From positions 124,001-188,000 of the forward strand of contig OZ237755.1 of the NCBI GenBank assembly GCA_965178125.1: a stretch of DNA of 64,000 bases, in the 5' to 3' direction. This stretch comes from Bilabrum cf. latius (Eukaryota). The position numbers and the translations under genes were made by a program. Below are positions 5,973-61,978 of this stretch, piece by piece (within the stretch, counting starts at the first letter, position 1; every line of letters begins with the position of its first letter). The notes under the pieces are model-generated. The model worked only from the letters and a program-made list of their open reading frames with translations. It was not told the origin of the DNA and searched no databases.

Positions 5973-6177
5973 GTTGCCTTAGTTCGTCTGCGCTCCACAC
6001 TAACTACCACTACAGTAAAGTGTCATCGCGCAATACGGGTCATTAAGCGGCTCGACTTCGTGCTGGTTGTGGTTGAAGTTCGCATGCCGCGCCATCATGG
6101 ATCGGCGATCCCGGTTCCGGTTGGCAGCTAAACCAAAAGCAATCGTACATAGAAGCGCCCGACTCATTTTCAATTGA

Positions 6178-17353: not shown

Positions 17354-19007
17354 GGAATCGGTGCACGAAACTAGTGTCTAGCACGCCGAGCACAGGCAAG
17401 AAAATGTCGAAACCGGTAACGCACACGTGATGATTAGTTTTAAGTTGCGACCACTGATGAACTTTCAAGAAGAAGATTAAAATCACGCCTGAGTGATGAC
17501 CGTGACGAACGGAACCGAGCACCGTGCAGTACCTCGGGCGAGCATGCATCTGCGATGTGTCGCATGCCGCCTTCGTACGGCTCGGTGCATCGCACCCGTC
17601 TGGAGCGGCTGCAACCGGAGGCGGGGGTGATTGAAAAAGGTGCCAGCTCATCCATGCGGTAGCGACGGCAGCCGCACACGCAGCCTCGCCTACCCATCTC
17701 CCCGTTGCTCACTTCGCGGGTTACCGCGTGCTTCCGGCTTCCCATGCCCTCCGTCATCATGATAATCGTGCGGCAAGACACCCACAGGCACTCAGTCCCC
17801 GGCAGCACCCTCCTACGGCGGCGGCACAGCAGCCCCGAACCTGAACTCAAGCCCCCGTACAAATATGTGCTGCAGCTTAGCGACCCGTTTGTCATCCTCG
17901 AGCAAGCTAACATGCCCGTAAGGGGGCAGCGGGGCCCCCTGTTTGGCCACCCGCTCGAAGGGCCTCCTCCCTACCATTGGGCCAGCAGCTGCGCCGAGAG
18001 CTCCTTACTTGCGCGCTTGTGGGATACCCAAGTGGTACGGAACAAATTGCAAATTAAGCAGAAGACTTAGACACAGTGATGTCAAGCTTTCAAAGAATGA
18101 TGATGCCTATGAGTCAGGTCTTGCGGGGCTTCATGAAGGTTCCATGTGGTACGTCAACTCACGAGCTGAGCGCTTGACTCCACAGGTATCCTTCATTTCC
18201 AGCATTGGCTGAAGCAATCAAAGGTGGCACGCATGTTGTAAGACAGTGTTGATATCTCGTCAACATACAGCGTTCTCGCCTAAGTCATGCACTTATTGAT
18301 CAACGCAGGTCCATCGAACCTCTTTTTCTCCGCAGCAAGTTTCCGTGCATTGATCTCGTGGTTGTGCTACTTTTCGGCGCACTCCTTCACAGTGAGTTCA
18401 AAAGAAGTATATATTAACACAAATGCACCACTCGACTTTGAAGAAATTCTGTCTATGCCTTGTGCGGCACCCAAGATCCACACAAAGGCAGCCCGCATCT
18501 TCGTGTTCGCGAAGATTCGTGGCACGCGTCTGCACTCATCTCGTCGACCTGCGCGCCGTTCGCTTTGGACTCGCAGGAACACACGCATCATGTTCTAATA
18601 GATTCAAAGATTCCAATGGTAAGCTGTCGGCGCGCTAGTTCGGGTCGAACATGCAACACCTCCGCGCCGAACGGCGAACGTAGCCTGATGCTTCCGTCTC
18701 CCAACCCGCACGCCCGGGGGCCAAGCGCCGCCTACCTTCCCGCGAGCCAGCATGCGCAACTGCCCGCTTTTGTTAAAATCCCAGATTGATGTTGTAACTG
18801 CTGATTCCAGGGCCATGTTTAATGGTTACCTGAGTCATGTTCCACCCACGCGAGCTAGTCAGTCGTAGCCACACCTTGCACCGCATCTGCGCAACATGAC
18901 CAGGCTGGTCCGTTGATTTGCGAGCGTCTCAGCCCTAGACACCAGCTAAAGTTGGCACACTAGCATTCCGTCAAGGTTTATCTTGCCTTCTTCTTTACAT
19001 TTCACAG

Positions 19008-31000: not shown

Positions 31001-33126
31001 AGGGCATCATCGATGTGAGCATCCTGGCCATCGTGGGGATCGACTATCTGCAGGTGCTGGCCATCTTTGCATCCACGAGGGTGGAGTGGCCCAGGATGCT
31101 GGAGGACGTGCTGGCTGTTCTTTCGGCTTTCAATCTCAACATCAACGTTCTGTTCGTGCCCGAGTGCATCGTACCTGGTATTGGGTTCCAGGTCAAGTTT
31201 CTCGCCACCTTGGCGATGCCCGTGCTAGTCGGTGTGATCTTGCTGTTGGTAGTACTTGTCCGTTACGTGTACAAGCTGCTGTTGACCAACTACAAGGCCA
31301 TGCCATCAGACTATCTATGCTCTGATGCCAACGCGACCATCAGCGCCTTCATCGTGCTGGCCCGGTTCGCCTACCTCTTCGTGACCATGATGGCACTCAC
31401 GCCGGCCGCCTGCCTGCAGACCACGCCCCCGGATGGCAGGACGTATATGGACGGCATGGTAGACCACCCGTGCTGGGAGGCTGGTAGCCTGCAGGTGAAG
31501 CTGTTCCCTGTCGGTATCGTTGCATTCGGGATCTTCAGTGTGGGCCTCCCCCTGTGGGTGTTCTACTTCTTGCAGCGCAATGCTGATCAGGTCAAGGAGG
31601 ACCAGGTGCTGCGTGCCGCAGGGGTAGGCAACGATAGGTCGACCAATAATGATCTGGCATTCCGCGAGCGATACTACCAGCTCTACTTCATGATGAAGCC
31701 GGGAAAGATCACGTGGCAGCTGGTCATCACCGCCCGCAAGTTCTTCATCGCCTTCGTGTCTCTGGTGGTGCGCACTTCGCCGTCGTACCAGCTGGCACTG
31801 GTGCTGCTCGTGCTGTTCGCCTCGTACGTGCTGCACCTCAACCACATGCCGTACATGACTCGAGCCAACAAGCCAGAGGTGGTGAAAGAGCACCTAACGA
31901 TGGTACGCGGTGGAAACCGGGCGCACTTGCGCATCCAGCACAAGATTGACCAGATCGCTGAGCGTCAGGAGAAGAACAACACTGCCAAGAGGACTTCAGG
32001 CACGGGCTACAAGGTAGCTCGAGAGCAGCAGCAGCGCGATGCAGACGCCAACGAGTTCCTGGCCAGCAACCAGGTGCTGGCCACCATCGTGGACTACAAC
32101 ACCGTGGAGGCGGTGCTGCTGGGGTGCGGCGTGCTCGTGTGCCTGAGCGGGCTGATCTTCGCCTCGGAGAGGTTCTCGTCCGCGCAGCTGAGGAAGGTGT
32201 ACAGGGCCGAGTACGATGCATTGGCATTCGCAGTTATTGCCATTATCTTCCTATCGTTGTCCTACTTTATGACCTGCGTGGTGCTGGACCTCATGATCTC
32301 ACTGGCTCCCGACGCTACCCGACAGTGCCTCGGCGTCTGCATCTCGGACAAGCGGAAGGCCATCGCAAAGGCCAAGGCCTCCAAGATACGGGCTGCCGAC
32401 GGAGCGGATCCAGAAGAGGGCATGACGGACGCCGAGAAGCTGTTGGCCACAAACAGCTCCAAAAAAGAGCGTCGCAGCATGGCCAATCCGCTCCTCATGC
32501 AAGGAGGGCCCAGAGAGGGCGAGAGCAAGGCCGAGGCTGCCGCTAGGGCCGCCCGCTCCCTTGGCCAGGGTGCCATCCAGGACCTGCTGCAGGCCACGCA
32601 GCCTCCTTCCTAGGACGGTTGGCCTGCCGTGCGCGCGTACATGCAGAGCCTGATCGTGGCCAACGACGAGATGAACAAGGAGAACGAGGAGCGCAACCGT
32701 GAGGACGTGCGGCGAGCTGTGATGGGCGCTCCGGTCGGGTCGTCCAGGGCTTCTATTGGTGGACTGGAGGCCGCACGAGCCGTCTCGGGGGCCTTGCCAG
32801 GACGGCGGACCGCAAATCAAGCGACCAAGAAGACCTTCGGGGCGCTGCGGGCCGACGGAATGACGCTGTCACCCATGGCTAGACCCGGAGCGGCAAGTGC
32901 GACCGACAAGCCCATTGGGCGCAGGGCTTCGAGATTGTAGTCGCGGGGAAGCCGAAGAACTCTCAAGGCGTTTGACTCGCAGAAAAAGGTCGGCGCAGTG
33001 CCGAAGGCGGTGGCAACTGAAGAACAAAGCGCGGCCCCTGTGGTCGCAACTGGAGAGGAGCACAACGCGGCCACCCCAGAAGGGCCAGTGGGTGCTGCTC
33101 GTGTGAAGGACGACTCGACGGACTGA
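19008..33126 (+). CDS. giant (>4,600 aa) cell-surface protein: lectin-like, sushi-like, cadherin, IPT/TIG and Cys-rich modules, then a multi-pass TM region; exons 19008-20301 and 20412-33126, 5' exon(s) unresolved
   Basis: Exon 20412-33126 is one frame with 19 TAGs and no TAA/TGA until 33124. Cadherin motifs (DRNDAPVF, ATDPDGD, LDFE, NVNEAP), repeated IPT-like GxNFG..C..PPGVG..YxPP units, and hydrophobic helices at 30943-32300. Intron 20302-20411 (GTGAG..GCAG) restores the frame. Confidence 0.85.
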
Positions 33127-34616: not shown

Positions 34617-36701
34617 ATGTCGCAATGCGGGATGAGTTGCGGCATCATACTGGTAGTTATCATAACCAGTATTATTGTTCGAGTATTCCTGTCCCGGTAT
34701 CCGCATTCTGGTTATTAGTCTCCCCCAATGCACGGGGATTTTGAAGCATAGCGGCATTGGATAGAAATTACTTCGCACACATCAATAGGGCAGTGGTATG
34801 AGAACACGACTGCCAATAATTTATTGTATTGGGGGCTAGACTATCCTCCCTTGACGTGAGGTAGGGCATCATTCGTGGCCCATTGACATTTTCGAAGCAA
34901 CGTGTTGATCCATTCCACACACCTCGCCGCGGCCTTTTCTGATCGCAGAGCGTACCATTCTTGGACAATGGGCCAATTTGCCAAGGTATTGAGTCCTGAA
35001 TCGTTTGCTCTGGAGAAGTCTCGCGGATCAGAAGACCAAGATACAAGAATTTTCATGCGATTATCTGTGATCCTGTCCGACGTGCTGGTGCTGTGCCCGG
35101 CCATCCTGCTCGCAGTCAGCTTGAGTACCGCACGCCAGCAAGGTACGGCTTCAATCATAAGAGTGTTGCAGTTATCTCTGCCGGTGCTCCTGTGCCCGGG
35201 TTTGCTGCTCATCGACCACGGCCACTTCCAATACAATGGGGTGTCCCTGGGCCTCGCGCTCGGTGGTGCCGTCTTGTGCGCCCATTGGGGCGACTTGGCG
35301 TACATGCAGCAGAGAGCCGACCAGCGTACAGGTCTTTTCAGTTGTGGCGGCCTCTCTGCCGTGTGGGCCGGCTGCGCCCTCTTCGCAGCAGCGCTGTGCT
35401 ACAAGCAGATGGAGCTGTATCACGCTCCCGCCTTCTTCTTCTTCCTCATCGGGGCGGCATTGGACGCTGTCGCTTCGACCCGCCACGCGCTGACTCGCTC
35501 TAGGGCCGCGTGCAGTGCGCGGTTCTGGTTGCTGATCGCGGTGTTCGGCTCTGCTGTGCTGTCAGTCATGGGGGCGTCATTCGCTCCTTTCTGTCTCTGG
35601 GCAGACAAACAGCACTGGCAGTCGGGCACAGCGATGGATCAAGATGGCACAGCACCGCACGATGGCGGCCTTGACCCGTCAAAGGTGACCGTTGCGCGGG
35701 GGTCGGACACAGGGGAGTGCTGGGGCGGCGTGCAGCAGGTCCTGTACCGCGTGTTTCCCTTCCAGCGAGGGCTGTTCGAGGACAAAGTGGCCAACCTTTG
35801 GTGCGTGGCGGAGCCATTCATACGGCTGCGGGGGTCTGTGAAGGCGGGAGAGGTGTCTCTGCAGAGTATCCTCGGTGCAGCAACGCTCCTGACGCTCCTG
35901 CTGCTCGTGCCAGTTGGCGTCTATGGCTTGCGATGCAGCATCTTTCTAGGAGCAAGCACGGGCTATGGAACGAAAGGGTCTGTAGAGCCTGTGTCGGCAG
36001 GCAAGCAAAGCGTAGCGGCGGCTGGCAGATACACTGGTGGCACAAATGAAGCGACTGACAAGTCAAGCACCAGCACCATCACAAACACCAGCTCCAGCTC
36101 CCTGCGACGGATGCTGCTACTCATGGAAATCAGCGCGCTGGCTTTTTTCCTAGCCTCGTTTCAGGTGCACGAGAAATCAATCCTCATCGCGATGGCACCT
36201 GCAAGCGGCCTGTGCGCGGGCTGGGGTCGAGCAGGAGGGGGCCAGGGAGGAGGGACGGGCAAACACAAACACTGGTCGCATTCGTGGCTTGTGTGGGTGG
36301 GCACGTGTACCATGGTACCCTTGCTGCTGCGAGATGGGCTAGGGTGGCCAACATTGGTGCTGCTATTGGCGTGGTTCGTGGTTTACGGCTGGGAGTGGGT
36401 GCGAGGCTGGGGCAGGGGCTGCTCAGGCGTGTGCAGTGGCACGCTTGCAGGGCTGCTAGGGGGGCTGGTCGCTTGTGGTGCCGCTTTGGGGAGCTCTGGG
36501 CTACTACTGGCGATCGGCGCGCATGTGGCAGTGGCCCCACCAGAGGCCATGCCCGACCTCTTCGTTCTTGGGATTGCGGCGGCCGGATGCGGCTGTCTGA
36601 TCGTGGCGTACGTTGCAGCAGTTCTCGAGCTGAGCGACACGCACGCGACCACGAAGGGCTCATAGCTTGAGACTGAAGCCGTTGCAAAGAAACTCGATTA
36701 A
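34617..36701 (+). CDS. ALG6: ALG6 dolichyl-P-glucose alpha-1,3-glucosyltransferase; exons 34617-34855, 34949-36701 (TAG=Gln)
   Basis: Motifs [69 protein letters not shown] and FQVHEKSIL. Intron 34856-34948. TAGs at 34716, 34749, 36663. Ends ...KKLD then TAA. Confidence 0.93.
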
Positions 36702-36978: not shown

Positions 36979-39900
36979 TTAGTACAAGTCCAAAGACGCC
37001 GTGTTGAACAGTGGGCTCTGACCAATGCTCTCTCGAGCCGCTTTGCCCTCCGCTTCACTCTCCTCACGCCCGCTGCCGCTCCGCGCAGAACGCGCCGCGG
37101 CCGGCACCGGGACAGCAGAGCTGGTTGCGGCGCCATCCCCCGAGACCTTGCTCTGCTGGCCACCGAGCCCTTCCCGTCCCACCCCTGCGTCGCTCGACCC
37201 CGAGGACTCGCCGCTGTCCGCCCGCCCTCGAGCAGCTTCCGATACAGCCGCCAGCGACGCGTCTCCCACTAAACTCGGAGACCCAGACTCTTCTCGCGCC
37301 AGCCGTGCCGAACCTCCCGAAGCAGCTGGGGAGCCGGGCCCATCGCTCCCCTCCCTCGCCCTCCGCTGCGAAGCGTCCGCAACGGCCACCACCGGCGAGA
37401 GCCCATCAAGTGCGGGCGACAAGGCCCCGGAGCTCCTGCGCCTCGCCGCCGAAGGATGACCCTTGCCCGCAGATGATGACGACCCACGCGCAGCAGAGGG
37501 TCTCCGGCGCTGCGTTCCAGTGGCTACCCCGGCGCTGCTGCCACCGCCCGCCGATCCCGATCCCTATCCTGCCCCTCCTGCTCCCGGCGTGGTTCCTATG
37601 CCTGCGGTGGCGTCGCTTCGACTCCCCGTGCTCTTGTAGCTGGCCCTGGATGCAGCTGACGCGGCCCTGTGCTGCCTCCTCTCCGCCCGCATCTTGGCGG
37701 CCTCCTGCGTCGCCCTCTCGATCTCCCGCGCGGCCCTCAGCCCGTCAAGCCTGCTCCTGCTGAAGAACTCGCCCCCCGCGCAGAACCCCACCATCCGGGC
37801 CATGCGCGCCTGCACCCGCTGCTCCTCGCCCACGGCCGACCCTCCCGCCCCACCCCCTTCCATTGCCTCCAGCTGCTCGTCCATGTCAACAGCCTCTTTC
37901 TGCCTCTCCTGAGGGGACATGTACCGCGCCCCCAGCGCCTGGCTAGCCGCCCTCATCTTAAGCTCACCCTCTGACGCGGCCCGTGCCCTCTCAGCCGCCT
38001 CCAAAGCCAGGTCCAGAGCTGCTTCCAGCTCGAGTCGGGTGGGACTAGGCCACGATCGTACGGCTATACGGCTCTCTGCCCGCTGCCGCGCGGGAGGCAG
38101 CAGCGCCGCCTCGACTTCCGCTGCCTGCTGCCCGCCCGGTGTGTCCAGGAGCACGGACAGCACTGCATCGCCGGGCAGAGAGGTCCGGGCCATGCGCAGC
38201 GCTGCCGCCACCACGGGCTTGAAGTCGGGCAGCACCAGAGCAGGCCCCAGCTGCCCGTGCTGGCCCGCGTGGTGCAAGAGTCCGGCCAGCGCAAGCGTCT
38301 CGGCCCGCAGGCCAGCGACCCGCACGGCTGCCAGTAGGCGCCCGCCCAGGAAGGCGCATCCCGCCCGACTCAGGTGCACCTGCCTGCGGCTAGGCGCGGG
38401 GTCCCGCAAGGATGCGATGGCCTGCAGCAGCTTGCGGACGATCTTCGCGTGGCTCCCGAACACGGCCACGTGAGCCGCGCACGACAGGTCAAAGGCAGTC
38501 TCTCCCAGCAGGTCCCGCATGGCCGAAGGGTCCTGCCCAGCGCCGTCATCTGCCTGCAGCACGCCGCGGGCATGTGCCACTGCCGCCCGGACCCTCTCCA
38601 CACAGCAACGCGCCGCTGCCCTAGGCTGCCCTGCGGCCCAAGCTAGCCTCCCCGCGAGCCCCAGGACCACGGCTGCCGCTGCTGGATTGCTTCTGCCCAC
38701 ATGACCCGCCTGCTTGCACAGCACGGCCATGGCCGCATCCAGCGCCTTGCTATTGTCGGCTGCTGGTCCCGCCGCCTGCTGCCGGCTCTCATCGCCCCGC
38801 ACCAGCCCCTGGGCTGTGGCTGGCATCCACCCGGGTCCCAGCGGGGGCAGCGCCATCGAAGTGGCTGGGTCCAGCACGCGCTCCAGGGCAGCCGCGGCCC
38901 AGGGGCCCGCACGCCGTGTGCTGTGGCTCGTGTCCAGCCGCACGGGTGCATCCACTCCGACCCCACCTACACCTCGTCGTGACCGCCCGTTCCCAGAGCC
39001 TGGGGCGGATCCAGCCCCGCCGTCAGTCATGGTTTCTGGGGCAGCGCCAGACTCCCCCCCGGCCTCCTCTGCGCTCAGGCAAGCGGGTCCGGATCGCACC
39101 CACTGCAGAGGATCGAAGCAGGCACTGCTGTGGCCAAACACGCCGTCTCGCTCCTCTAGCTCCCTCAGCATCGCCTGCGAATCTCTCCGGTCCTGCGCCT
39201 CCCGCTCCGCTCGCAGCCGGGCCTCTGCATCTTCTTGCGACTCCTTCCGCTCACCAGACGCATCCGCTCTGTTTCCATCCTCGTCCTCGTGGTCGTGCCA
39301 CTCGAGGCCACCGGCCTGCGCTGCCATCCGTCGTCTCTTCTCGCGAACCTTTCTCTCGGCCTCTGCGCGCCTCGCCATGTCCTTCACTCGCTGCCGGTTG
39401 ATCCGCTCTAACTTCTTGAGGCTGGACTCTAGCCGCCCATCCAGCCTCCGCCGGAAGTGGAACCGATCGTCAAACCCATCCCGCGCCTCCTCAGGGTCGC
39501 TGTCCTCGTCGTCAGAGTCCTCTTCCGACTCCGAGTCGGTGCAGCCCCCTTCCGCTACCACGCTGTTGCTACCACTCCCGGCGGACCGGCCGTGCCGCCG
39601 CCCTTTGCGGGAAGACCCTCGACTGGACCTTGAATGGGTCCTCGCCCGAGCTCCCGACGAGCTGCCACCACCGCTTCCCGCACCCGATGCGGCCGCCAGC
39701 CCGCCTGCAGGGGCGTCCCCTGATATTCCTATGAAGGTCCAGATCCTCTCACGGCGGGTCCACGTGAATCGCTTGTGCCCCGCTGCCACGAGGTGGGGCA
39801 TACGCGAAGCCAGACCGGCCCACTCCCCCTCCGCCGAGTGCATCGCATGGTGATGTCCCCCGGAGCCCCCGCCGCTGTCCACCCCATGCAGCACATGCAG

Positions 39901-42900
39901 CACCCCGGCCAGCCCAGAGGCAGTCATGGGGCCCAGCACCTGACCCATCCCGTCCGGGTGACCGCCCCGTTCTGCCGCCGCTCCGCCCTCCTCGTCCAAC
40001 CGGTGGCGCTCCTTCGACCCCTTCTTCACCGAAGATGCGCTGCCAGAAGTGCTACCGTGTGCATTCGCCACATCGACCGCGGCTCGGATGCACAGGGCAG
40101 CAGATGCCCACAGACCGACCATGCCGCCCTCGCCTTCCATCTGACGCCTGGCCTTCTTTCCAGGCACCAGCAGGCCGGGCACGAGCGCACCGAGTCCCTC
40201 CGATAGCATGCCGCAGTCGGTCCCGCACTCAAGCAACAGGTCCCTCGTGGCCTCAAGCACGGAGGAGCCGGCCCCGCCGCAGGCGATGCACGCGGCCAGC
40301 CGGCCCAGCCCGCCTCCGATCCTTGCCACCACTGACCCAGCCATGGTCTCCCCGGTCCCCATCCCCCGATCCGAGCCCCTCTCGCCCACGCTCCTCGCTG
40401 CTACCACCAGGAGACACTGCAGTAGCGGGTGCACTCGGCGCTTCCACGCCTCCCGCAAGACAAGTCGCGCCAGTTGCGCGCGGAACCGAAGCAGCTCCCC
40501 ATCGCTGGCGCGGCGCAGTGCCTCCACGGTGCTTGAGGCACCTGGCATCTGCGCCTCGGCAGCACCAGGGCTCCACCGCACCCGGGCAAAGTCCACCATC
40601 GCCCGGTCTATGCCTCGCAAAACCTGCCCGCACACCTGCATCAGCACGAAGAATGCTCCTTCGCCGGACAGGCCCCCCAGCTCGCGCTCAAGCCCGCCTT
40701 GGACCGCACCGAGGACTGCATCGACAGAGGCGCGAGCGCTTCGAATTGCTTGTGCGTGCTGCCCTTGCGCGCGCTTGAGTGCGGCAGCCGCGCGGCGTAC
40801 AGCGGCCGTCGCCCCGCCCGCTCTGGTCCTCTGGCTCTGCCCGCCCCAGCCCCGCGCCTGTCCGCTGCCAGGCTCGCCTCCATGCATCTCACCCAGCACC
40901 CTCTGTACCGAGTCGGCCACGCCGGCCTTGAGCTCTTTCACTAGCGGCTGGCAGCTGCTTAGCACCGACGCTGCGCGGGGCGCGTGCCACCCGCAGCCAT
41001 GCGCACAGCTCGCCAAGTAGCCGAGCGTGCCGCATGCAGCACCGACTTCGTCTGCTAGTACGGAGGGGTGCTGCAGCTAGCTGGATGCGGCTAGGCATGC
41101 GTGCACTGTGCCCAGGGACTCCTTGAGTAGCCGGTCGAAATCAACCGCAACCGCCCAGCGGGCGCACACTTTGGCGATGGGCTGCTACAGCTGCTCGGGG
41201 TCCAGTGCCCCCGAGCCTGGAGCGGGACCTTGCCCCCAGTCGGAGTCGGATCCAGAAGAGGCCGCAAGCATGCCGCTGAGCAGCACCGTCACGAGCTATG
41301 ACACACCAGATACACTTGCAGACCTCTCCTAGCCCGCAGCGTCTTGGGCTAACCGTTCTTTGTCGGCTCGCTGGCGTCGCAGGGCGACCTACATGCTGAC
41401 GGCCGGGCTCTCCCCCGCCCCGCCGCCCTCGACCAGCAGCGTCTTGCGCCCTGCAAGCCGGGGATTGAACGACATCGCCCAATCCAGACCCGCCCCGCGC
41501 CACACAGGACCATCAGCGGGAGAAGGCGCGCTTTCTGCGGCATCGCACCCACCTTGCTCGCCAGAGCCAGTGCCATCTCGCGTTCCGGCGGCAATCGTCC
41601 ACCACAGAGCCCCACACCCCATTCGGGCTGCTTGCCGTGCGAACGCCGCTGCAGACGCAAACTGCGCCTCATTCGGCCACATCGGCTGCTAGCTCACAGG
41701 CGCACGCGGCAAAACAGTCGCCCCTTTCGGCCACTGCAGCATTGGTGGGATGCCCAGTGCCCTCCTTGCTGCCTGGCGAGCCTGCCGTACCCGCTCTTTC
41801 TGCGCCCGCACGAGGCCATCACCATCCTGCACTCCCCCGGCGGCACCCGTCCCAACTGTGATGCCCTGCACGAACGAACTACCCAGTCCCTGCAGCGCGG
41901 ACGAAAAGCGTCGCACGCCTACCACTGCGCTTGAGGTAATCTCTGAAATGTTTCGAGTCGGGGATGGCGCGTCTGTGGGTGGTGATGCCGCGCCTGCAAG
42001 CACTGCCGAATCTTCTCGGGGCCTAGTGCTGCTGCCATTTGCAGACGTGGACACTCCACCAGCAGCTGCCGACGCAGGCTGGAACCCGACTTTGCCCTCT
42101 TCAGTAGTCGCATCAGGGCGCAGGCTGTTAGCCGCAAGCATGCCTGTCCCGTCGCCTTGCCGAGATGAGGTTAGCTCTCGCAACTGCCTAGCTGTGCCCT
42201 GTAGAATGCCCTGTCTCTGTTGCTCCAGCCAGCCACTTACGCCACTGGCGCGTTGCTGTGATCGCGACCCCTCGTCCCCTTGATCTACTGCTTGAAGAGC
42301 ATCGCCCGCAACAGGGCCGTCCATTTGCAAAAGTAGCGCTGCCTCGCAGTCTGCAGGCGGCAGCTCCAGCTGGGTGCCAACAGCTGCAGCTGTGAGCGCC
42401 TTGGCGGCTCTATGGCTATCGCTGGACTGCTGCCCCCGGCGCTCATCCGCACTTGGCTGGCCAGTCACGAGCGCATTCGTCTGCATTGACAGCCGGCGGA
42501 ATCCGGTCTAGAACATATTGCCAATCTATGCAAAACCTGCTGCGGGTCCAGACGACGCAGAATCTGGCGCCCTTCTTGGCTCATCTCGTGGCAGCGGCTG
42601 AGACTTCGTGCCCGTGGGGTGGTCGGCGCGCTCAGGTGCCAGGCTGGAATGTGCAGCGGGAAGCGCGGCACTGGCCTCTGCTTGCTAATGGGCCCGCTGA
42701 ATGATGTCCTCAAGTTGCAAGGACGCAGAAGTAGCTGCAGCCGTATCCCTGGCACTAGCTTCGTCCAGATCCTCCTCAATCGTGAAAGAAAAATCACCAC
42801 CTGCCGCCAAATCTTGCAGCCTGACCACCACTGGCGTGGTGGCTGGTTGAGCTGACTTAGGAGTACCTGGCCCGGATCCTCTCCGTGCCAGAGTGGGCGA

Positions 42901-45900
42901 CGGCCCGGCCTCTTCTACTGCCGCCGGGACGGAGATCCCGCTGGGTGCCTTCGGGACCTTGGGCGCCCGAGTGGCAGCATCAGCTGCAGCTGGGTTGCCC
43001 ATGCCGTCGCCAGCAGGGGCAGGGACAGGGGCAGCTACAAAAGGGCTACCATGGCCCTTGCCCTCCTCACCCTCATCCTCTACCCCATCCACTAGATCCA
43101 TGGCACTCTTGCGACGATAGCTACTGCGCTTTCGAGACCTGCTTACCCTCTCACGGCGAAGCTTAGCTTGCTCGGCCTTCAGACGGGCCTGCTCCCGCGC
43201 CTCCTGCTCGGCCTTCACACGGGCCTGCTCCCGCGCCTCCTGCTCGGCCTTCACACGGGCCTGTTCCCGCGCCTCCTGCTCGGCCTTCACACGGGCCTGC
43301 TCCCGCGCCTCCTGCTCGGCCTTCACACGGGCCTGCTCCCGCGCCTCCTGCTCGGCCTTCACACGGGCCTGCTCCCGCGCCTCCTGCTCGGCCTTCACAC
43401 GGGCCTGCTCCCGCGCCTCCTGCTCGGCCTTCACACGGGCCTGCTCCCGCGCCTCCTGCTCGGCCTTCAGACGGGCCTGCTCCCGCGCCTCCTGCTCGGC
43501 CTTCACACGGGCCTGCTCCCGCGCCTCCTGCTCGGCCTTCACACGGGCCTGCTCCCGCGCCTCCTGCTCGGCCTTCAGACGGGCCTGCTCCCGCGCCTCC
43601 TGCTCGGCCTTCAGGCAGGCCTGCTCCCGCGCCTCCTAAATACGCCGAACAGATTCGCGCGCGAGCTTTCCTCTAACCACTCGCTGCAATTCGATCGCAC
43701 CACGTGTTTGAGCTTCAAGTCGCCTCTCGGCAGCTTCTGCTTGCTGCTACCGAAGGGCCAAATGCAGACTCTGGCGATCCTCTCGGGTCCGCCAGAGAGC
43801 CTGGAGCGACACCGCCAGTCGCGATAAACGCTCAAACAGCGCGCGCGCCTCTTCATCGTCTTCGTCGTCTGAATCTGAATCTGAGTCTGAGTCTGAGTCT
43901 GAATCACTGTCGCTGTTGGTGTCGGTGTCAGTGTCCTTGTCGGTGTCGGTGTCACTACCGCTGCTTCTTCCATCGTCCGAACCAGACCCTGAACCAGATG
44001 TTGACCTATCCGTTGCATCATCGTCAGAGCTATGATCCACACCGTCATCATTCGTCGATCCTATAGGTTCTGCCAATGCCTCAGGAGGCTTAGCAGGCTA
44101 ATCTACTTCAGCACTAGCACTTTTCACTGTTGCTATGCTGCCTCCATCCTCTCCTGTACCCTGCTCATCCTCATCAGACGAATCATGAGAGGACTCCTCT
44201 GAACTATCGCTATCCGAATCATCATCGAAAGATTCTTCATCTGAGGAGCTGGGCACCTCCACAATGTCAGTCGACGCTGAACCAACAACTGCAGTCCCGT
44301 GCACATTTTCACCAGCTCCGCACTAGTTTTCAGCGAATTGTTCACGCTTCGCCTTGGCCGCTGCCTCCGCCGCCGCACGCTCACGCTCAGATGCACACCG
44401 ACGCCGAGCCAGCATGCCGCGACTCACACGCTGCACTGCCACCGCCGCGTCACGCTCACGCTTCGCCTTGGCCGCTGCCTCCGCCGCCGCACGCTCACGC
44501 TCAGATGCACACCGACGCCGAGCCAGCATGCCGCGACTCACACGCTGCACTGCCACCGCCGCGTCACGCTCACGCTTCGACTTGGCCGCTGCCTCCGCCG
44601 CCGCACGCTCACGCTCAGATGCACACCGACGCCGAGCCAGCATGCCGCGACTCACACGCTGCACTGCCACCGCCGCGTCACGCTCACGCTTCGCCTTGGC
44701 CGCTGCCTCCGCCGCCGCACGCTCACGCTCAGATGCACACCGACGCCGAGCCAGCATGCCGCGACTCACACGCTGCACTGCCACCGCCGCGTCACGCTCA
44801 CGCTTCGCCTTGGCCGCTGCCTCCGCCGCCGCACGCTCACGCTCAGATGCACACCGACGCCGAGCCAGCATGCCGCGACTCACACGCTGCACTGCCACCG
44901 CCGCGTCACGCTCACGCTTCGCCTTGGCCGCTGCCTCCGCCGCCGCACGCTCACGCTCAGATGCACACCGACGCCGAGCCAGCATGCCGCGACTCACACG
45001 CTGCACTGCCACCGCCGCGTCACGCTCACGCTTCGCCTTGGCCGCTGCCTCCGCCGCCGCACGCTCACGCTCAGATGCACACCGACGCCGAGCCAGCATG
45101 CCGCGACTCACACGCTGCACTGCCACCGCCGCGTCACGCTCACGCTTCGCCTTGGCCGCTGCCTCCGCCGCCGCACGCTCACGCTCAGATGCACACCGAC
45201 GCCGAGCCAGCATGCCGCGACTCACACGCTGCACTGCCACCGCCGCGTCACGCTCACGCTTCGCCTTGGCCGCTGCCTCCGCCGCCGCACGCTCACGCTC
45301 AGATGCACACCGACGCCGAGCCAGCATGCCGCGACTCACACGCTGCACTGCCACCGCCGCGTCACGCTCACGCTTCGCCTTGGCCGCTGCCTCCGCCGCC
45401 GCACGCTCACGCTCAGATGCACACCGACGCCGAGCCAGCATGCCGCGACTCACACGCTGCACTGCCACCGCCGCGTCACGCTCACGCTTCGCCTTGGCCG
45501 CTGCCTCCGCCGCCGCACGCTCGCGCTCAGATGCACACCGACGCCGAGCCAGCATGCCGCGACTCACACGCTGCACTGCCACCGCCGCGTCACGCTCACG
45601 CTTCGCCTTGGCCGCTGCCTCCGCCGCCGCACGCTCACGCTCAGATGCACACCGACGCCGAGCCAGCATGCCGCGACTCACACGCTGCACTGCCACCGCC
45701 GCGTCACGCTCACGCTTCGACTTGGCCGCTGCCTCCGCCGCCGCACGCTCGCGCTCAGATGCACACCGACGCCGAGCCAGCATGCCGCGACTCACACGCT
45801 GCACTGCCACCGCCGCGTCACGCTCACGCTTCGCCTTGGCCGCTGCCTCCGCCGCCGCACGCTCACGCTCAGATGCACACCGACGCCGAGCCAGCATGCC

Positions 45901-48900
45901 GCGACTCACACGCTGCACTGCCACCGCCGCGTCACGCTCACGCTTCGCCTTGGCCGCTGCCTCCGCCGCCGCACGCTCGCGCTCAGATGCACACCGACGC
46001 CGAGCCAGCATGCCGCGACTCACACGCTGCACTGCCACCGCCGCGTCACGCTCACGCTTCGCCTTGGCCGCTGCCTCCGCCGCCGCACGCTCACGCTCAG
46101 ATGCACACCGACGCCGAGCCAGCATGCCGCGACTCACACGCTGCACTGCCACCGCCGCGTCACGCTCACGCTTCGCCTTGGCCGCTGCCTCCGCCGCCGC
46201 ACGCTCGCGCTCAGATGCACACCGACGCCGAGCCAGCATGCCGCGACTCACACGCTGCACTGCCACCGCCGCGTCACGCTCACGCTTCGCCTTGGCCGCT
46301 GCCTCCGCCGCCGCACGCTCACGCTCAGATGCACACCGACGCCGAGCCAGCATGCCGCGACTCACACGCTGCACTGCCACCGCCGCGTCACGCTCACGCT
46401 TCGCCTTGGCCGCTGCCTCCGCCGCCGCACGCTCACGCTCAGATGCACACCGACGCCGAGCCAGCATGCCGCGACTCACACGCTGCACTGCCACCGCCGC
46501 GTCACGCTCACGCTTCGCCTTGGCCGCTGCCTCCGCCGCCGCACGCTCACGCTCAGATGCACACCGACGCCGAGCCAGCATGCCGCGACTCACACGCTGC
46601 ACTGCCACCGCCGCGTCACGCTCACGCTTCGCCTTGGCCGCTGCCTCCGCCGCCGCACGCTCACGCTCAGATGCACACCGACGCCGAGCCAGCATGCCGC
46701 GACTCACACGCTGCACTGCCACCGCCGCGTCACGCTCACGCTTCGCCTTGGCCGCTGCCTCCGCCGCCGCACGCTCACGCTCAGATGCACACCGACGCCG
46801 AGCCAGCATGCCGCGACTCACACGCTGCACTGCCACCGCCGCGTCACGCTCACGCTTCGCCTTGGCCGCTGCCTCCGCCGCCGCACGCTCGCGCTCAGAT
46901 GCACACCGACGCCGAGCCAGCATGCCGCGACTCACACGCTGCACTGCCACCGCCGCGTCACGCTCACGCTTCGCCTTGGCCGCTGCCTCCGCCGCCGCAC
47001 GCTCGCGCTCAGATGCACACCGACGCCGAGCCAGCATGCCGCGACTCACACGCTGCACTGCCACCGCCGCGTCACGCTCACGCTTCGCCTTGGCCGCTGC
47101 CTCCGCCGCCGCACGCTCGCGCTCAGATGCACACCGACGCCGAGCCAGCATGCCGCGACTCACACGCTGCACTGCCACCGCCGCGTCACGCTCACGCTTC
47201 GCCTTGGCCGCTGCCTCCGCCGCCGCACGCTCACGCTCAGATGCACACCGACGCCGAGCCAGCATGCCGCGACTCACACGCTGCACTGCCACCGCCGCGT
47301 CACGCTCACGCTTCGCCTTGGCCGCTGCCTCCGCCGCCGCACGCTCGCGCTCAGATGCACACCGACGCCGAGCCAGCATGCCGCGACTCACACGCTGCAC
47401 TGCCACCGCCGCGTCACGCTCACGCTTCGCCTTGGCCGCTGCCTCCGCCGCCGCACGCTCACGCTCAGATGCACACCGACGCCGAGCCAGCATGCCGCGA
47501 CTCACACGCTGCACTGCCACCGCCGCGTCACGCTCACGCTTCGCCTTGGCCGCTGCCTCCGCCGCCGCACGCTCACGCTCAGATGCACACCGACGCCGAG
47601 CCAGCATGCCGCGACTCATACGCTGCACTGCCACCGCCGCGTCACGCTCACGCTTCGCCTTGGCCGCTGCCTCCGCCGCCGCACGCTCACGCTCAGATGC
47701 ACACCGACGCCGAGCCAGCATGCCGCGACTCACGCGCTGCACTGCCACCGCCGCGTCACGCTCACGCTTCGCCTTGGCCGCTGCCTCCGCCGCCGCACGC
47801 TCACGCTCAGATGCACACCGACGTCTGGCTTGTCGACCTCTCCACCTTGCCTGCGTCCAGTGTGCTACCTTTACGAGTTGCTAGTATATTATGGCTTCCT
47901 CGTCGTCGCTCTCATCAGTGTCACTGTCTGAATCAGATGCGGAATCACTGTCAGTATCAGTGGTGCTTTTGCTGGTGTCAGCATCCGAAATACTCCCAGC
48001 TGACTCCCTGTGAGCGCCTTCACTTGCCTCGCCAGACTGTTCTGGGGTTATGATGGCCTCCTTTCTCTCGATGCCTTCTTCATGTAACCCATCGGCACTG
48101 GCCTCCTTGCCAGAGCCGTCCGCCTCCTTGTCAGAGCTGTCTGCCTACTTGCCAGAAGCACCTGCCTCCTTATCATCTCTCAAAGGTAGCTAGTTGGCTC
48201 CTGCTGTCTCCGTCGCTGCAAGCCCGCTCTTTCTCGACGACATTGCCCTGCTCAGGAGACGAGGGGTGGCCCACGATGGGAAGTATGACGGAAGAAGCAG
48301 GCCTCCTTCGGCTAGTGCGAGGCATCGGTGGTGAACCTGCTGCCACGGGAGTTGCGCAACGCGAGACACGCGCGGGGGCGCCCTGGGCTCGCCGTGAAGC
48401 ACGAATGCGACACCACCACCAAGAGCACCAGCCGCCTCTTGCACGGCTTGCGATCCATGGTGCGCTCCTGCCTGCACGCAGAATGCCAACGCCGGAGAGG
48501 GTGTAAGTGCCACGTCACGAATGACCCCTAGATCGGCATGCCACTGCAGCACGCCCGCTGCCTCCACACGTGAGGGCCTGGGGTCCAGCAGGTGAATGGC
48601 CGTGCTACTGTGAGCAAATAAGAGACTCTCGCACGCCGAGGAAGCGTCGTCCATGATCCCGCCGCCAGCAGGCACCTCGTCTGGGTCACCGAATTCCTCT
48701 GATGAGACGGTATCACCATCCGAAGAGGACGAATCCGACCCGCTGCCACTGTCGCTGCCACTGTCTGAATCGCTGTCCGAGTCGCTGCTGCCGTCCTCAA
48801 CCCCGGTCCAAGCCCGGGAGTCCACGTCCCGCAGAGGCTTGGCGAGCGTGATGCATTCCACCAAGCCGAGCTCGTGCTTGACCTCCTCGGCCCCCGAGGC

Positions 48901-50868
48901 CCCGCCAGCCCCCTCCAGCACGGTGCCGTCCTCAGCCAGCCACCCGGCAGCGCGTCCCCTAGGCTTGTAGCGGAGAGTGGAGACTACCTGGCCGGTAGCA
49001 GCAGAGGCCAGCCATACCGCTCGCTGGGGCCTGGCTGCAAGGATTCCCGCCTGTGCTTGCCTCGCTGCAGCGGACCCTGACGAAGTGCCAGCAGCGGCGC
49101 TGGCCTGCGCTGCGGCTGCCCTATGCGAGTCGCTGTCGCTGCCCTGAGTGGTCGCGATGGTCGCAGCCAATGCAGCCTCTGCTTCTGGGGGTGCGAAGCA
49201 CGCGCCTGCCACCACGTTGCGCGGGCGCTTCCCGACCGGCACCGGCTTCACCTAAGCCGCAAGGCTCAAACCACCGGCACTCCTGCTCTCCTGCTCGCTA
49301 CCTGCACCTTCTGTGCCACTGCCAGCCCCAGTCCTGCCAGTCAGTGACGCAAACATACCGACAACGGCTCCCGCCGCGCTAGATGACCGCCTCAGACCCG
49401 CGCCCTAGGCGTCCTTGCCAGCGCCCTACGACCCCGAGTCAGTGGGGGCGGGCCTGCCCAGCTGCACCCTGAGCACCACGGTCCTGGCAGCAGTAGACAC
49501 AAGCACAGCCACGCGCTGGGGCCGTCTCCGGAGAGCGGACGAGCGTGCCTGTGCAGGCGTCACGCTCATGCGTCCAGACGGACCTGGTGCAGGTGCTGGA
49601 GCCAGCGTGCCTGCCTCGCTCCCGGCCCGAGAGGACCGTGAGGAGGAGGGTCCTGCGCTGCGGTCTGCTGCTTGATCTTTGCCTGATCCAGTGGTATCCA
49701 GCATGGCCGCTAGGTGGGCCGTCTGCGCGCCCAAAAAGGGAAGCACTGCCTGCGATACCGTGCCCTTGCGCATCATGCTGGACTCGGAAGCTACCACGCG
49801 CCGGCGATGCCAGGCCTGCAGCTGCACCACGGAGGCCTGAGACTCGTCCTGGTACAGCACCCGAGACGCTGCCCTCCCCATGGGCTGCACGGGGGGCGGC
49901 GGACCCCCGGGGGCACCTGCGGGTGCCAGAGGCCCGTCTGCAAGCCTGCCTCCTCCTGCGCCCCCTGCTGCTGCACCGCTCCCGGGGCCCGCAGTGGGGC
50001 CCGAGCCCGCGCCCGCTGCCTCTGGACCCGACACACTGCCGCTGACAAGCCTAGAAAAACCGGAAGCGAGCGCCGAGAAACCGGCAGCGGCGCCTTTCAC
50101 TGCCTGGGCTGCTGCTTGGGATGCCGCGCCGGAGGCGCCAGCTTCAGGCGGCACTTCCTCCAGTGCTGACAGGTCGCTGGCGCACACGCGTCCAGTGGCA
50201 TCCCCAGAAAATACGGCGTCGGAATTAGGGCTCCACTCGAGAGTGCGCACCACCGCGCCCTGCGAAGACGAGCGGAGGAAGGTCGGGATCGGCAACAGCA
50301 TGCCACGGGAAAGATATAGAAGGGGCTGCGCCGCAAATAGAGCCGGCCGACCACCTTACTCTGTGTCTGGCGCATTCTACTACCGAATAATCTCCACAAA
50401 TGGACATATGCTGACGTGACGGAATCGCAACGACGTACACGCCGCCTTGGCCGTCAGACGCAGCGACCATGAGCTCATTCGGGGCAAGCGATACCGCTCT
50501 GATCCCTTCCTTGGATCCTAGTACATGAATTGTGCAGCGTAATTTCACTCCAGACGAAACACTTGGTGTCGCCTGGCTGGGCACAGCCTGCTTGGCCTGC
50601 GACACAGCAACAGCAGCTGCTGCGCAGTCCATTCTGTCGTAAACGAATATCATACCTGATGTGCTTCTGCGACATATAGATAGAATACTTATGCTTGCCG
50701 AGAGGCTTATTATGCTACAGTGAGTTGCTAGCAGGAATCGAGACCCAAGGATCAGGTATCTTACCCGCAAACAAGCAAGCTGGGACCGGCATCAAGGCAT
50801 GTCACAATGGCAGTTCCAGCGTGCACAGGTAGTTCCTATCTGAATAAACACGATTCAGGGATTGCCAT
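36979..50868 (-). CDS. giant (~4,560 aa) protein: HPS5/TECPR2-like N-terminal beta-propeller, acidic tracts, IQ-motif array, charged helical repeat, unknown C-terminal half; exons 50868-50765, 50666-50360, 50259-36979
   Basis: Motifs VTCLDAGPSLLVCGSTSGMIFVYDR, HRGAVVRTLEWSPNSDAVFSGDATGRV, SVVQL..LVSTAART, VGKRPRNVVAGACF and AARPQRAVWLA resemble the HPS5/TECPR2 propeller. The last exon is one 13.3-kb frame broken only by about 20 TAGs and ends TAA at 36979-36981. Confidence 0.75.
43166..43638. repeat. 36-bp coding tandem repeat, about 13 copies (KAEQEAREQAR[V/L] on minus strand)
   Basis: Unit gcctgctcccgcgcctcctgctcggccttcacacgg is repeated nearly perfectly. Confidence 0.95.
44341..47823. repeat. 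114-bp coding tandem repeat, about 30.5 copies, encoding 38-aa IQ-motif units on minus strand
   Basis: Near-identical 114-bp units translating to DAAVAVQRVSRGMLARRRCASERERAAAEAAAKAKRER. No unique spacers. Confidence 0.97.
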
Positions 50869-51043
50869 TGCAATGGAATTGCCCGGAAGGGGCGTAGAAT
50901 GGGTGATTCGTCTGTATGCGTGCGTAGGTTCCGCAATTCGCTTGGCGCCGTGCGCGGCGACGCATTGCCTGATGAGGCTCGAGGCCGGGCAAACAGACAA
51001 TGATAGATCGAGTCGAATGCTGACTTTCATGATATCTATCCAA

Positions 51044-54000
51044 TTACAACGAGGGAGGTGCACCCCCTCTGGTAAGCTGCGCAATCAGCGCAGCGGTGCG
51101 CGGCGAGGCATCCTGCGGCACGCCACCTGCCTGTTGCCCCGGCGGGGGCACGTAGATGGGGGGAGGGGCATTGGGGGCACCCGCCGAAGCACCCGGCGCC
51201 GGTGCCGGTGCCGGTGCGGGTGCAGGTGCCGGTGCAGGTGCCGGTGCGGGTGCGGGTGCGGGTGCACCAAAGAAAGCGCTGAACATGCTGGGGGCCGGTG
51301 CTGGGGCCGGGGCCGGGGCTGGTGCAGGTGCAGGTGCAGGTGCAGGTGCAGGCGCAGGTGCAGATTGGGTCGCAGGCGCCGCGGCGGCCTGCTTGTCCTG
51401 CTGCTACAGCTGCGCGATGAGAGCAGCAGTCCGGGGGGAAACGTCGCCTCCCCCCGACCCTGAGCCGGAACCCCCACTAGACCTATGCTGCTGGTAGCCG
51501 GGCGGGGGCGCGTGCACAGACAAGCCCGGTGACGACCCCGAGGCTGCGGGCGGAGCCGCGCTGGGGTATGTGGCACCAAACCCCGCGGCTCCGCCTGCTG
51601 CTGCCACCCCGCTCCCCCCGCCCGGTCCTGCCACCCCAGACCCGGGTGCCCCTGCCCCTGCCCCTGCCCCAGCACTCCCCTAAGGCCCCGAGGGCCCAGC
51701 TCCCATCTGCAGGATCTGCTCCCTGCGCTCGATGTCCCGCGAGTACTTGAAATCCGCCGCGCCCCGCCGCAGCCTCTCGGCCTGCTGCCTCACATCCGAG
51801 TAGAAGGTTTGCCCGTCCCGCACCACGGACCGCAGCTTCTCGAAGCGGTCCACGCCTTCCGCCAGCCGCTGCAACGCCTCTCCTCGCGCTCGCGTCCTGG
51901 CGTCCGTGGCTCGCAGCTCGTCGTACCTCTTTGCCAGCGCCTCTATCCTCTCCAGCATGCCGCCGTGGGCCCGCATGCTGGCTTGCAGCGCCCTGCGTTG
52001 GGGCTCCCTTGCCTCCGAGAGCTCCAGCATGGCACGGTCCTTGGCCTCCTCGCCCAAAGAGCCGCCCACCGCCTTGCCAAGCATGATGGTCGTGGCTTTG
52101 CTCTTGGGACACTTGCGGTACACGTCGTCAACGAGCTGCTCCCACTTGCCCTGCACCGCCGACAGCTCCTTGAGCGCCTCCTTGAGCTGCTCCCGCTCCG
52201 CTGCTCCCCCGGCCCCGCCCGTGGGTGCGGACGGCACCTCGGCGGACACCTCGGCGCGACTCCTGCACAGCCCCACGATCTCGGGCCGCAGCCGCTGCAG
52301 CTCCCGCTGCACCTGCGCATCGTTCCCGGCGGCTTGACGCAGGAACCCCCTCAGCCGGTCCACCTCGGCTGCCATGGGCGCCCCCACCTCAGCGGGGGCC
52401 GCGCACCTCCACCTGGGCCCGAACTGCTTGGCCAGCGTGTCGTGGTCCCGCCGGTCCGCCTCGAGGCTCTCCACCGCCCCCTCGATGTCACGACCCGCCT
52501 GTGAGCCCTTCTCATGGCTCTCCCGCAGAAGGCGGTCCAGCTCCTCGGCGCCCCCCTGGATGCGGACCCCTTCCACGCGCCTCCAAAGGTCGTCAGGGAT
52601 GCCCTCCGTCTGCTCGGCCGCGTCGATGGACCCAGGCAGCCCCAGCTCCTGCAGCTTGTCCTGCGCACGCTGCAGCTCCGTCGCGGTCTCCTCCTTAAGC
52701 CTCTTGACCTCCTGCTTCACGGCCTCCTCGTGCTCGTCCACAGCAGCGGCCACCAGGCGCGGCACCAGGGAACCAAAGATGTCTCGGATCTCGGGGGCAC
52801 CCCCCTCCCCCGCTGATGCCCCGGAGGACGCCCCGGAAGCGGCCTCCCCATCGGTGGAAGGCGGACCCACTGCATCGGCCGCAAAGGGGCGCCCGGTCAC
52901 GGGATGGTTGCCCTCTCCCCGCAGCATCGCGTCGATCTTGTCGGGCGCCGTGGGCCGGGCCATGATAGTGGCCGCGACGGGAGGGGTGGCATCGAAGGAG
53001 GGCACCACCTCCATGTACACGTCCACGTTCTTCCTGTGGATGGCAGCCCTCAGCTCCTGCGCCTAGGCCTTGAGCGCCGCCAGCCCGGAGTCGTCGAACT
53101 TCTCCCGCCCCTTCTTCTCGGTTTCCTCCGCCAGCCGCTGGGCAAACCCGATGATCTGCAGGCACCTGTCCAGCACCGCGAGCGCGGCACCGAATCCCTT
53201 GAGCACCTCTGGGTTCTTGGCGTTCTCGTGGATGCCTTGGGCGTGCCGGAACAGGGCGCCCGCCTGGAACGAGGTCTCCTGAAACTTGAGGTACTCGGTC
53301 CACGGATAATCCCTGCTGATTTCGGACATGTCCTCCTTGCGCATGCACGCGGCCGCCTGCCCGTACAGGTTGCCTGCACCCATGGCCAGCTGAGCAAGCT
53401 TCTGCTGCGGCATGTTGTTCTTGAAGGCCATCTGGTAGAAGCAGGCCTGCGCTTGCGCCTGCATGAGGAGAGAGAGCAGCTGCAGCCCCTCCGGGGTCAT
53501 GTCCACCGTGGGCCGGCCCGTGAACTTGTTGGAGATCTGGGTGCGCAGGTAGCTGAACAGGCCCGAGGCGAGCATCATGTGCTTGGCGCAGTTCTTGATC
53601 CCATCGTTGGAGCTCCTGTCCGTGCGGATGCCCCTCACGGACTCGAGGGCCCCCAGGTTGAAAAGGATGCACGCCGTCTCGTACGTCCAAGAGTACTCGG
53701 CGTAGCTGCGGGACGGCAGGAACGCGTCTGTCCACTGAAACTTTATGCGCAGGCCGCCCGAAGACGTGACCGGTAGCTTTTCTTTGCACAAATATATCTG
53801 CTGCAAATACCTGCGGGACGATCGAACAGCGAGGTGTTTGAAAGGACCTGGGTGGGCAAGCCGCAGCACGACGTGCGTTGAACAGTGTCAGATAACGATG
53901 GGCTCGGCGAGGGCACTATCCACCCGTTTGCGATTCCAATAAAAAGCTAGATGGGGCGTACAGGCACAGTTCTGCGCACTCACCCGATCAGGGTAGATCT

Positions 54001-56706: not shown

Positions 56707-56841
56707 GCTGGGCGCTATGGAACGCGCGACAATCAGCGCGGTTGCACTTCACTGACGAATGCAACTTGAAGCTGCGAGCATGCTGCCAGCCAATCATAAA
56801 ACAAAGAACTCCTGACGCGAAAATACCACGGTATAGGAGCT

Positions 56842-61818: not shown

Positions 61819-61978
61819 GGCTGGATATGGGACCTTTCGTGATTGCGACTGCACAATCGTCGAGCCGCGATCATCATCACCAAAGACTGCCAGTGGGTCC
61901 GCCGAGCTTGCACGCTGTACAGATTGGAAGAACTTGCCAGACCGGCCATACAGCTCCGGTTGCTATCACTGATTACGC

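Follow-up and report, generated by a model that had tools for sequence, protein, structure and literature searches.

A single gene on the minus strand of the 64,000-nucleotide window analysed here (positions 124,001 to 188,000 of contig OZ237755.1, Bilabrum cf. latius, assembly GCA_965178125.1; coordinates below count from the first letter of the window) encodes one continuous protein of 4,563 amino acids (aa), with a predicted mass of about 476 kDa, when TAG is read as glutamine. Its sequence supports assignment of the N-terminus to the propeller family of HPS5 and TECPR2. This propeller is followed by a 30-unit array of IQ motifs, a second, short IQ and helix segment, and a long C-terminal region. 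The explanation that we favour, and hold tentatively, is that the protein is a tether subunit of BLOC-2 type whose central linker houses an IQ/helix spacer.

Gene structure and transcript evidence

The gene has three exons and a spliced coding sequence of 13,692 nucleotides (nt) that ends in a TAA stop. Exon 1 (50765..50868, residues 1-35) begins with the ATG at 50868 and contains one TAG; exon 2 (50360..50666), delimited by the splicing seen in run X5, carries the first propeller blades; and exon 3 (36979..50259) is an open frame of 4,426 codons with 20 TAG codons and the terminal TAA. Both introns are of the GT..AG type, intron 1 (50667..50764) measuring 98 nt and intron 2 (50260..50359) 100 nt. 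The spliced sequence has 21 in-frame TAG codons and no internal TAA or TGA; under the standard code, the single frame between 50355 and 36979 would split into pieces of 194-1,185 codons. The part of exon 3 outside the repeats (3,084 codons) lacks TAA and TGA altogether, against about 50 expected from base composition, and the other five frames over the same codons hold 28-83 each.

Contigs of four public runs (X1, X5, X6 and X8) were compared over 47715-51150. One X5 contig of 2,857 nt, with both introns removed and no mismatch, spans 50848 to 47794, a point inside the first repeat. A contig from X6, a separate study, also has intron 1 removed; the unspliced form is present in X1, and in the DNA of the relative sampled in X8 the sequence of intron 1 is exchanged for unlike letters. 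No run is recorded as RNA, and X5 carries the label 'RNA? (probably DNA)'; we take it to be RNA-derived because its contig is spliced. Since that contig reaches the first repeat, the spliced form retains the TAG codons, and a single transcript carries both the propeller and the array. One protein is therefore documented by spliced sequence from the 5' end as far as the first repeat, and farther on by the open frame.

An earlier note on this DNA, made from the sequence alone, had described a protein of about 4,560 aa with these coordinates and parts, and it was correct once two introns and a sense TAG are allowed for. Separate transcripts for the propeller and the repeats, which it had named among the findings that would overturn it, were not observed, one spliced X5 contig joining the propeller to the first repeat. 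We regard it as very improbable that the propeller-array portion is made separately from the C-terminal 2,400 aa, or that the join or the array length is an artefact of assembly. The contig evidence does end in the first repeat, and short-read contigs collapse the array; against this, no in-frame TAA or TGA lies on either side of the array and the frame continues across it, a distant relative (L065, described below) has a single frame from the 12-aa repeat onward, and the repeat unit is unique to this array.

The N-terminal propeller

The predicted beta-propeller occupies residues about 1-780 (48330..50868) and has long Ala/Gly/Ser- and Asp/Ser-rich loop inserts. In the first 793 aa of exon 3 the only Pfam family is PF23756, the HPS5 beta propeller (E 1.2e-7), which scores 31.7 bits against a curated cut-off of 34 over the start of this exon. 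When the propeller was rescanned against Pfam as 11 short pieces, PF23756 was the top family in three, in order; seven had no match and one had a chance match. The three islands correspond to profile positions 108-139 (50140-50259; E 0.0011, 18.7 bits), 187-211 (49150-49281; E 0.083, 12.5 bits) and 209-242 (48946-49080; E 0.0024, 17.6 bits), with PF23756 as sole family in the latter two. Exon 2 gave a weak WD40-type match, RAB3GAP2_N (E 0.015). The 19 other PF23756 matches in the genome stop by profile position 153, and the four of these loci that were read are ordinary WD40 proteins, which argues that the later islands, reaching position 242, are family-specific. This locus was itself missed by the genome-wide PF23756 search, so another divergent HPS5 could equally have escaped it.

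Blades can also be matched by eye to protist HPS5 in a comparison with 7 of the 33 rows of Dataset S1 of PMC11513930: AARPGRRIWLADAVTATV of Acanthamoeba corresponds to AARPQRAVWLASAATGQV in our protein, and QVGSKPRKGNYGACF corresponds to PVGKRPRNVVAGACF. Low-complexity inserts have stretched the propeller to about 780 aa, against the 328 positions of the profile. With three collinear islands and the by-eye match, the propeller resembling HPS5 or TECPR2 that had been proposed from the sequence stands, and can be refined to an HPS5-type: as the protein has neither TECPR repeats nor a RING domain, HPS5 appears to be a better label than TECPR2. On the family match that the earlier note asked for, the profile score falls short of the cut-off of 34 bits.

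Other searches with this region returned little. Protein searches gave no matches for exon 2 among longer proteins, and a query with residues 1-660 of exon 3 had none in the size range 1,045-3,325 aa; the start of exon 3 matched two fragments, and no HPS5 or TECPR2 sequence was among the returns for any of the three queries. A PDB sequence search with the propeller had no matches at E 10, and a metagenome scan with a propeller alignment found nothing.

The IQ array and its flanks

Downstream of the propeller, an acidic Asp/Ser/Glu linker of about 155 aa (47860..48329) leads to a divergent IQ-like motif, WTQARWRGRQAR (47824..47859), and then to the array (44342..47823), in which tandem-repeat detection finds 30.5 copies of a 114-nt (38-aa) unit with 99% matches. 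In each unit, an Ala/Glu/Arg/Lys helix of about 23 aa is joined to one IQ motif (VQRVSRGMLARRRC); the unit contains no Pro and one Gly, and has a net charge of +6. The 30 full units each differ from the consensus at no more than 2 of 114 nt, with two amino-acid variants among them, and all 30 exceed the PF00612 cut-off (20.3 bits), with scores of 20.8-21.5 bits, a margin of 0.5-1.2 bits. A search of the genome with the unit gave 30 matches, every one in this array. The IQ consensus of myosins usually has a large hydrophobic residue at a position that is held here by Ser.

A second linker of about 165 aa (43860..44341; 23% Asp, 22% Ser) separates the array from a degenerate IQ look-alike (about 43773-43809) and from a downstream IQ motif, ELQRVVRGKLAR (43657..43692), which fits the pattern and scores 24.2 bits with PF00612. 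There follow 13 copies of a 36-nt (12-aa) Glu/Gln/Ala/Arg/Lys repeat that is charge-neutral and resembles a single alpha-helix (SAH) (43169..43637). The Asp/Ser tracts and the 12-aa helical repeat described in the earlier note are therefore present, and its count of about 32 IQ motifs is borne out, 31 at Pfam level and one by pattern. Of the two divergent flanking IQs that it listed, ELQRVVRGKLAR is a Pfam-level motif; the 29-aa piece with WTQARWRGRQAR has no Pfam match and is IQ-like by pattern alone.

Residues 936-2115 contain no Pro and 31 Gly, and would have a contour of 177 nm as one unbroken helix. This agrees with the earlier estimate of roughly 170 nm as a contour length only, not as a rigid span, given the acidic linkers that flank the rod. 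Bare single helices bend over tens of nanometres.

The tandem junction was found in contigs of all four runs, and in X8, from a relative about 93% identical in the flank, the array is present at high depth; the array is therefore real and shared with that relative. Repeat-to-flank depth was about 42-45 in X1, 17 in X5 and 9-14 in X8, values that do not equal copy number; array length may vary. Among the 40 of 167 differences listed for X8, the unit differs at three positions, two of them silent and the third Asp to Glu.

The homogeneity of the units invites another explanation, which we consider quite possible: an ordinary HPS5-type protein whose tolerant central linker took up a coding minisatellite. 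One IQ-like helix would have been amplified by unequal crossing-over, its length and number unselected and any calmodulin binding incidental. Elsewhere in the genome (G000:C34:713641-718275, minus strand, L078/L079), a coiled-coil protein ends in 17 near-identical 43-aa IQ units with Gly-rich spacers. This second homogenised IQ array, in an unrelated gene, makes neutral repeat expansion a near-equal rival. Such an expansion is also consistent with units that differ by at most 2 of 114 nt, with further coding tandem repeats (L095, below), with a propeller itself swollen by low-complexity inserts, and with the wide variation of repeat-to-flank depth among X1, X5 and X8. Against it, the array is in frame and Pro-free, and is also found in X8, where two of the three unit differences listed leave the amino acid unchanged; the second linker lies between two separate IQ-plus-helix segments; and L065, at 40% identity, retains the 12-aa repeat.

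The C-terminal half and its relatives

In the C-terminal 2,058 aa (36982..43168), low-complexity stretches alternate with conserved blocks that are predicted to be helical. No Pfam family was found there, in keeping with the roughly 2,000 aa of unrecognised sequence reported earlier. TECPR repeats were not among the Pfam families of residues 2116-4563, and no RING was found: the 4,563 aa contain a single CxxC (residue 3461), and the C-terminus is of low complexity.

The C-terminal 1,200 aa, compared with 1.84 billion representatives, gave four matches, namely three relatives and one chance match. All five true relatives that we found are fragments of 213-888 aa. A second metagenome scan gave one locus, L065, which begins inside the 12-aa repeat, has at least five copies of it, and continues into a collinear C-terminus, with 40% identity over 1,563 aligned columns. 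Starting at the 12-aa repeat, L065 has a single open frame that contains 10 TAG and neither TAA nor TGA. An open frame at this identity indicates that the C-terminal half is conserved as coding sequence together with the short repeat.

Two structure models of C-terminal parts, built from three and two sequences, are all-helical and of low confidence (predicted local distance difference test, pLDDT, 43 and 53). Fold searches with these models returned generic helical bundles and TPR/MIT hairpins, the best with Z up to 11.8 (root-mean-square deviation, rmsd, 2.3, 120 aligned) and 10.1 (rmsd 2.2, 89 aligned), and listed no HPS or VPS solenoids. Such models would fit the helical half of HPS5, at this low confidence. 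We regard the C-terminal 2,000 aa as specific to the lineage and, by prediction, helical in part.

Calmodulin and other EF-hand proteins

The genome has a calmodulin gene (L080) and 77 EF-hand-pair matches at E 1e-8 or better. When one array unit (42 aa) was folded together with the C-lobe of this calmodulin, the complex scored 0.47, against 0.02 for the best control; contacts agreed to at least 98% between runs, and the pLDDT of the partner was at least 72. In the benchmark of this method, 5 of 78 solved complexes passed with scores of 0.60 or less, and all four passing mismatches, out of 180, lay in that range. The prediction gives weak support to calmodulin binding by the unit. Of the calmodulin-decorated tether proposed in the earlier note, this bears on the decoration, the tethering role being a proposal.

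It is possible that the rod serves the cytoskeleton, in which case an HPS5-derived propeller would have been reused in a centrin- or calmodulin-coated fibre of the flagellar root, the basal body or the cortex, for which Sfi1 and ASPM are the models. The size of the protein, 1.7 times that of the longest HPS5 in the family dataset discussed below (2,669 aa), fits such a fibre, as do the abundance of EF-hand pairs and the absence of a BLOC-2 partner from the results of the HPS3 searches. On the other side, the protein has no calponin-homology, motor or other cytoskeletal domain and has kept HPS5-specific propeller motifs, and we judge this reuse to be distinctly unlikely.

Relation to BLOC-2 and to other IQ proteins

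According to excerpts of PMC11513930, BLOC-2 subunits combine a beta N-terminus with a helical C-terminus, HPS5 is poorly conserved between its ends and occurs in oomycetes, and BLOC-2 is related to subunits of HOPS and CORVET. Excerpts of PMC12493267 describe BLOC-2 as a tether from endosomes to lysosome-related organelles, its mechanism being unresolved, and report that a Dictyostelium form acts in endolysosome maturation. Dataset S2 of PMC11513930 comprises 47 proteins, of which 42 are HPS5 (334-2,669 aa) and five TECPR2, all of the latter from animals and most with TECPR repeats; no bicosoecid is among the 47. About one third of HPS5 members have a C-terminal RING, which is not required for membership.

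Our protein resembles HPS5 in its N-terminal propeller with family motifs in order, its predicted helical C-terminal part, its poorly conserved middle and its occurrence in a protist. It differs in its length (4,563 aa, against 334-2,669 aa), in its 30-unit IQ array and its helix repeat of 12 aa, neither of which any of the 47 entries lists, and in having no RING, no TPR_HPS5 match and no partners found. That no IQ-bearing HPS5 or TECPR2 is known, as the earlier note supposed, agrees with this dataset, and an HPS5 with an IQ array was not found in the literature that we searched, most subscription journals being outside its scope. TECPR2 shares the propeller family; unlike it, our protein has no detectable TECPR repeats. 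Neither HPS3 domain (PF14761, HPS3_N; PF14763, HPS3_C) had a match in the genome, in searches whose controls were silent or below cut-off and which therefore do not imply absence, and TPR_HPS5 had none either, its controls being uninformative; the HPS3 searches thus gave no BLOC-2 partner. A BLOC1S1 match (E 0.23) was rejected as an unrelated coiled coil.

The rod itself can be compared with other proteins. In the lever arms of myosins VI, VIIa and X, IQ motifs are likewise joined to charged helices and bind light chains, and excerpts of PMC6981383 propose that calcium alters the stiffness of such IQ-SAH arms. These myosins have one to six IQs on a motor, whereas here 30 units alternate IQ and spacer helix and there is no motor. 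ASPM/Asp, like our protein, is very large and has a long IQ array; its calponin-homology and ASH domains precede that array. Our protein differs from it in its 38-aa spacing and attached HPS5 propeller, and a Pfam scan of the whole frame in pieces found no calponin-homology, ASH, motor or other cytoskeletal domain.

Several points weigh against a BLOC-2-type tether subunit. Every PF23756 piece falls under the cut-off, exons 1-2 have no PF23756 match, and TPR_HPS5 and RING are undetected. The array motif departs from myosin-type IQs at its Ser and passes the cut-off by just 1 bit, the unrelated coiled-coil gene indicates that this genome makes homogenised IQ arrays without HPS5, and L065 starts downstream of the array position and so says nothing about an IQ array in distant relatives. 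The complex score falls in the range where all passing mismatches lay, and, as IQ motifs and calmodulin are a textbook pair, the prediction may pass by likeness.

We nevertheless favour the BLOC-2-type reading, in which the gene would be the HPS5-type subunit of this lineage's BLOC-2-like endolysosomal tether. The N-terminal beta-propeller and the C-terminal helical region would have been retained, while the variable middle would have grown into a rod of 30 IQ and charged-helix units, followed by a second short IQ/helix segment; the C-terminal helical blocks may stand in for the helical half of HPS5. Once every 38 aa, an EF-hand protein such as calmodulin would dock and stiffen the units, and calcium might alter this docking, and hence stiffness or reach, by analogy with myosin IQ-SAH lever arms. 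The rod would then be a long adjustable spacer whose contour could reach 177 nm, separating the C-terminal part from a propeller that binds membranes or a Rab, with the acidic disordered linkers acting as its hinges. The fuller proposal, a calmodulin-coated and calcium-adjustable arm of 100-180 nm on a BLOC-2-type tether subunit in what is probably a bicosoecid UAG=Gln lineage, we consider unlikely in its entirety.

TAG as glutamine in the nuclear code

All ten long frames examined in the window have in-frame TAG (81 in total), and all nine that close within it stop at TAA or TGA. A 93%-identical relative has Gln facing both TAG sites covered; in a relative about 60% identical, the one well-aligned site is Gln and a poorly aligned one is Val, giving Gln at three of three well-aligned sites in close homologues. 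The picture is weaker for L065, which shares the pattern of in-frame TAG without TAA or TGA: Gln faces two of seven TAGs of our gene and two of nine TAGs of L065, including the two with the best-conserved flanks, and the remainder lie opposite Ala, Ser, Met, Thr, Gly, Glu or Lys. In L095 (G000:C7 about 55080), a coiled-coil protein with a 14-aa tandem repeat, one repeat position is CAG in four copies and TAG in two.

TAG was also scored as Gln, Glu, Tyr, Leu, Lys or Trp by Pfam score in six test pieces. Gln was best in three: in VRR_NUC by 5.0 bits (49.1 against 38.8-44.1 with other residues, the only clear preference), in a kinesin by 0.1, and in one cadherin as the sole match. Trp exceeded Gln by 0.3-0.7 bits in two pieces, and one had no match. 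Prp8, with just three TAGs, does not decide the meaning. A single-copy tRNA with a CUA anticodon (L012, G000:C23:907607-907679) looks hybrid, with a D arm of Gln/Glu type and an acceptor stem equal to tRNA-Tyr at six of seven positions; because of this Tyr-like stem the tRNA alone does not name the residue. In the release factor eRF1 (L088, G000:C35 about 455983), TASNIKS and YLCDNKF of the yeast and plant chains are replaced by TAVNIKS and YMCDSHF; the TAG within this gene aligns with Gln in plant eRF1 and with Leu in the yeast chain. On these comparisons, the nuclear code appears to be one with UAG as Gln and UAA and UGA as stops.

Such codes are listed for Iotanema spirale, Protocruzia tuzeti, Hartmannula sinica and Trochilia petrani in excerpts of PMC11687900. 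Our lineage resembles these in UAG=Gln with UAA and UGA kept as stops; it has a GC-rich genome and an aerobic mitochondrion with UGA=Trp, which does not fit a fornicate. We take these two traits not to fit a ciliate either. The lineage is probably bicosoecid, and the literature searched gave no UAG=Gln code for any bicosoecid or any stramenopile. The mitochondrial contig (G000:C111, L091-L094) has 38,401 bp, 24% GC, cox1, a UCA-anticodon tRNA (UGA=Trp), an apparently truncated nad11 and several unusually long ribosomal-protein frames, features that agree, as circumstantial evidence, with the bicosoecid descriptions in excerpts of PMC6723347 and PMC6972860.

Neighbouring genes

An ALIX/BRO1 gene (51044-53887), a second endosomal trafficking gene, lies immediately upstream, at a distance of 176 nt from the start codon and on the same strand; it is on a separate contig in X5. 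On the plus strand, 18950-33126 encodes a very large surface-type protein (a frame of 4,265 aa, probably longer upstream) with sushi, cadherin and IPT/TIG repeats, a multi-pass membrane region and a charged tail. A Gephyrin/Cnx1-like molybdenum cofactor protein (59335-61965, minus strand) has its E domain before its G domain, as in plant Cnx1. In-frame TAG also occurs in genes for a FAN1-like VRR-NUC nuclease (2016-5978) and a kinesin (15032-17353) on the minus strand, and, on the plus strand, for lipin (9411-14792), an ALG6/8 glycosyltransferase (34887-36701), an ankyrin protein (56800-59205) and a FabG4-like short-chain dehydrogenase (61973-64000). PDB searches with the kinesin and FAN1 had no matches at the thresholds set, and Rfam had none in the window.

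Implications

A code in which UAG alone has come to mean Gln, accompanied by an altered eRF1 and a tRNA of hybrid appearance, belongs to a rare type, and may prove the more citable result if the lineage is confirmed. TAG read-through splits such proteins into database fragments, as in the five relatives found here, so that genes of this kind are missed. An HPS5 relative with a 1,200-residue rod in its middle indicates that the two ends of this family can be far apart in sequence, and the rod provides a natural object on which to ask whether BLOC-2 tethering depends on spacer length or on calcium. If the proposal is true, a calcium-adjustable arm would couple calcium signalling directly to long-range endolysosomal capture.

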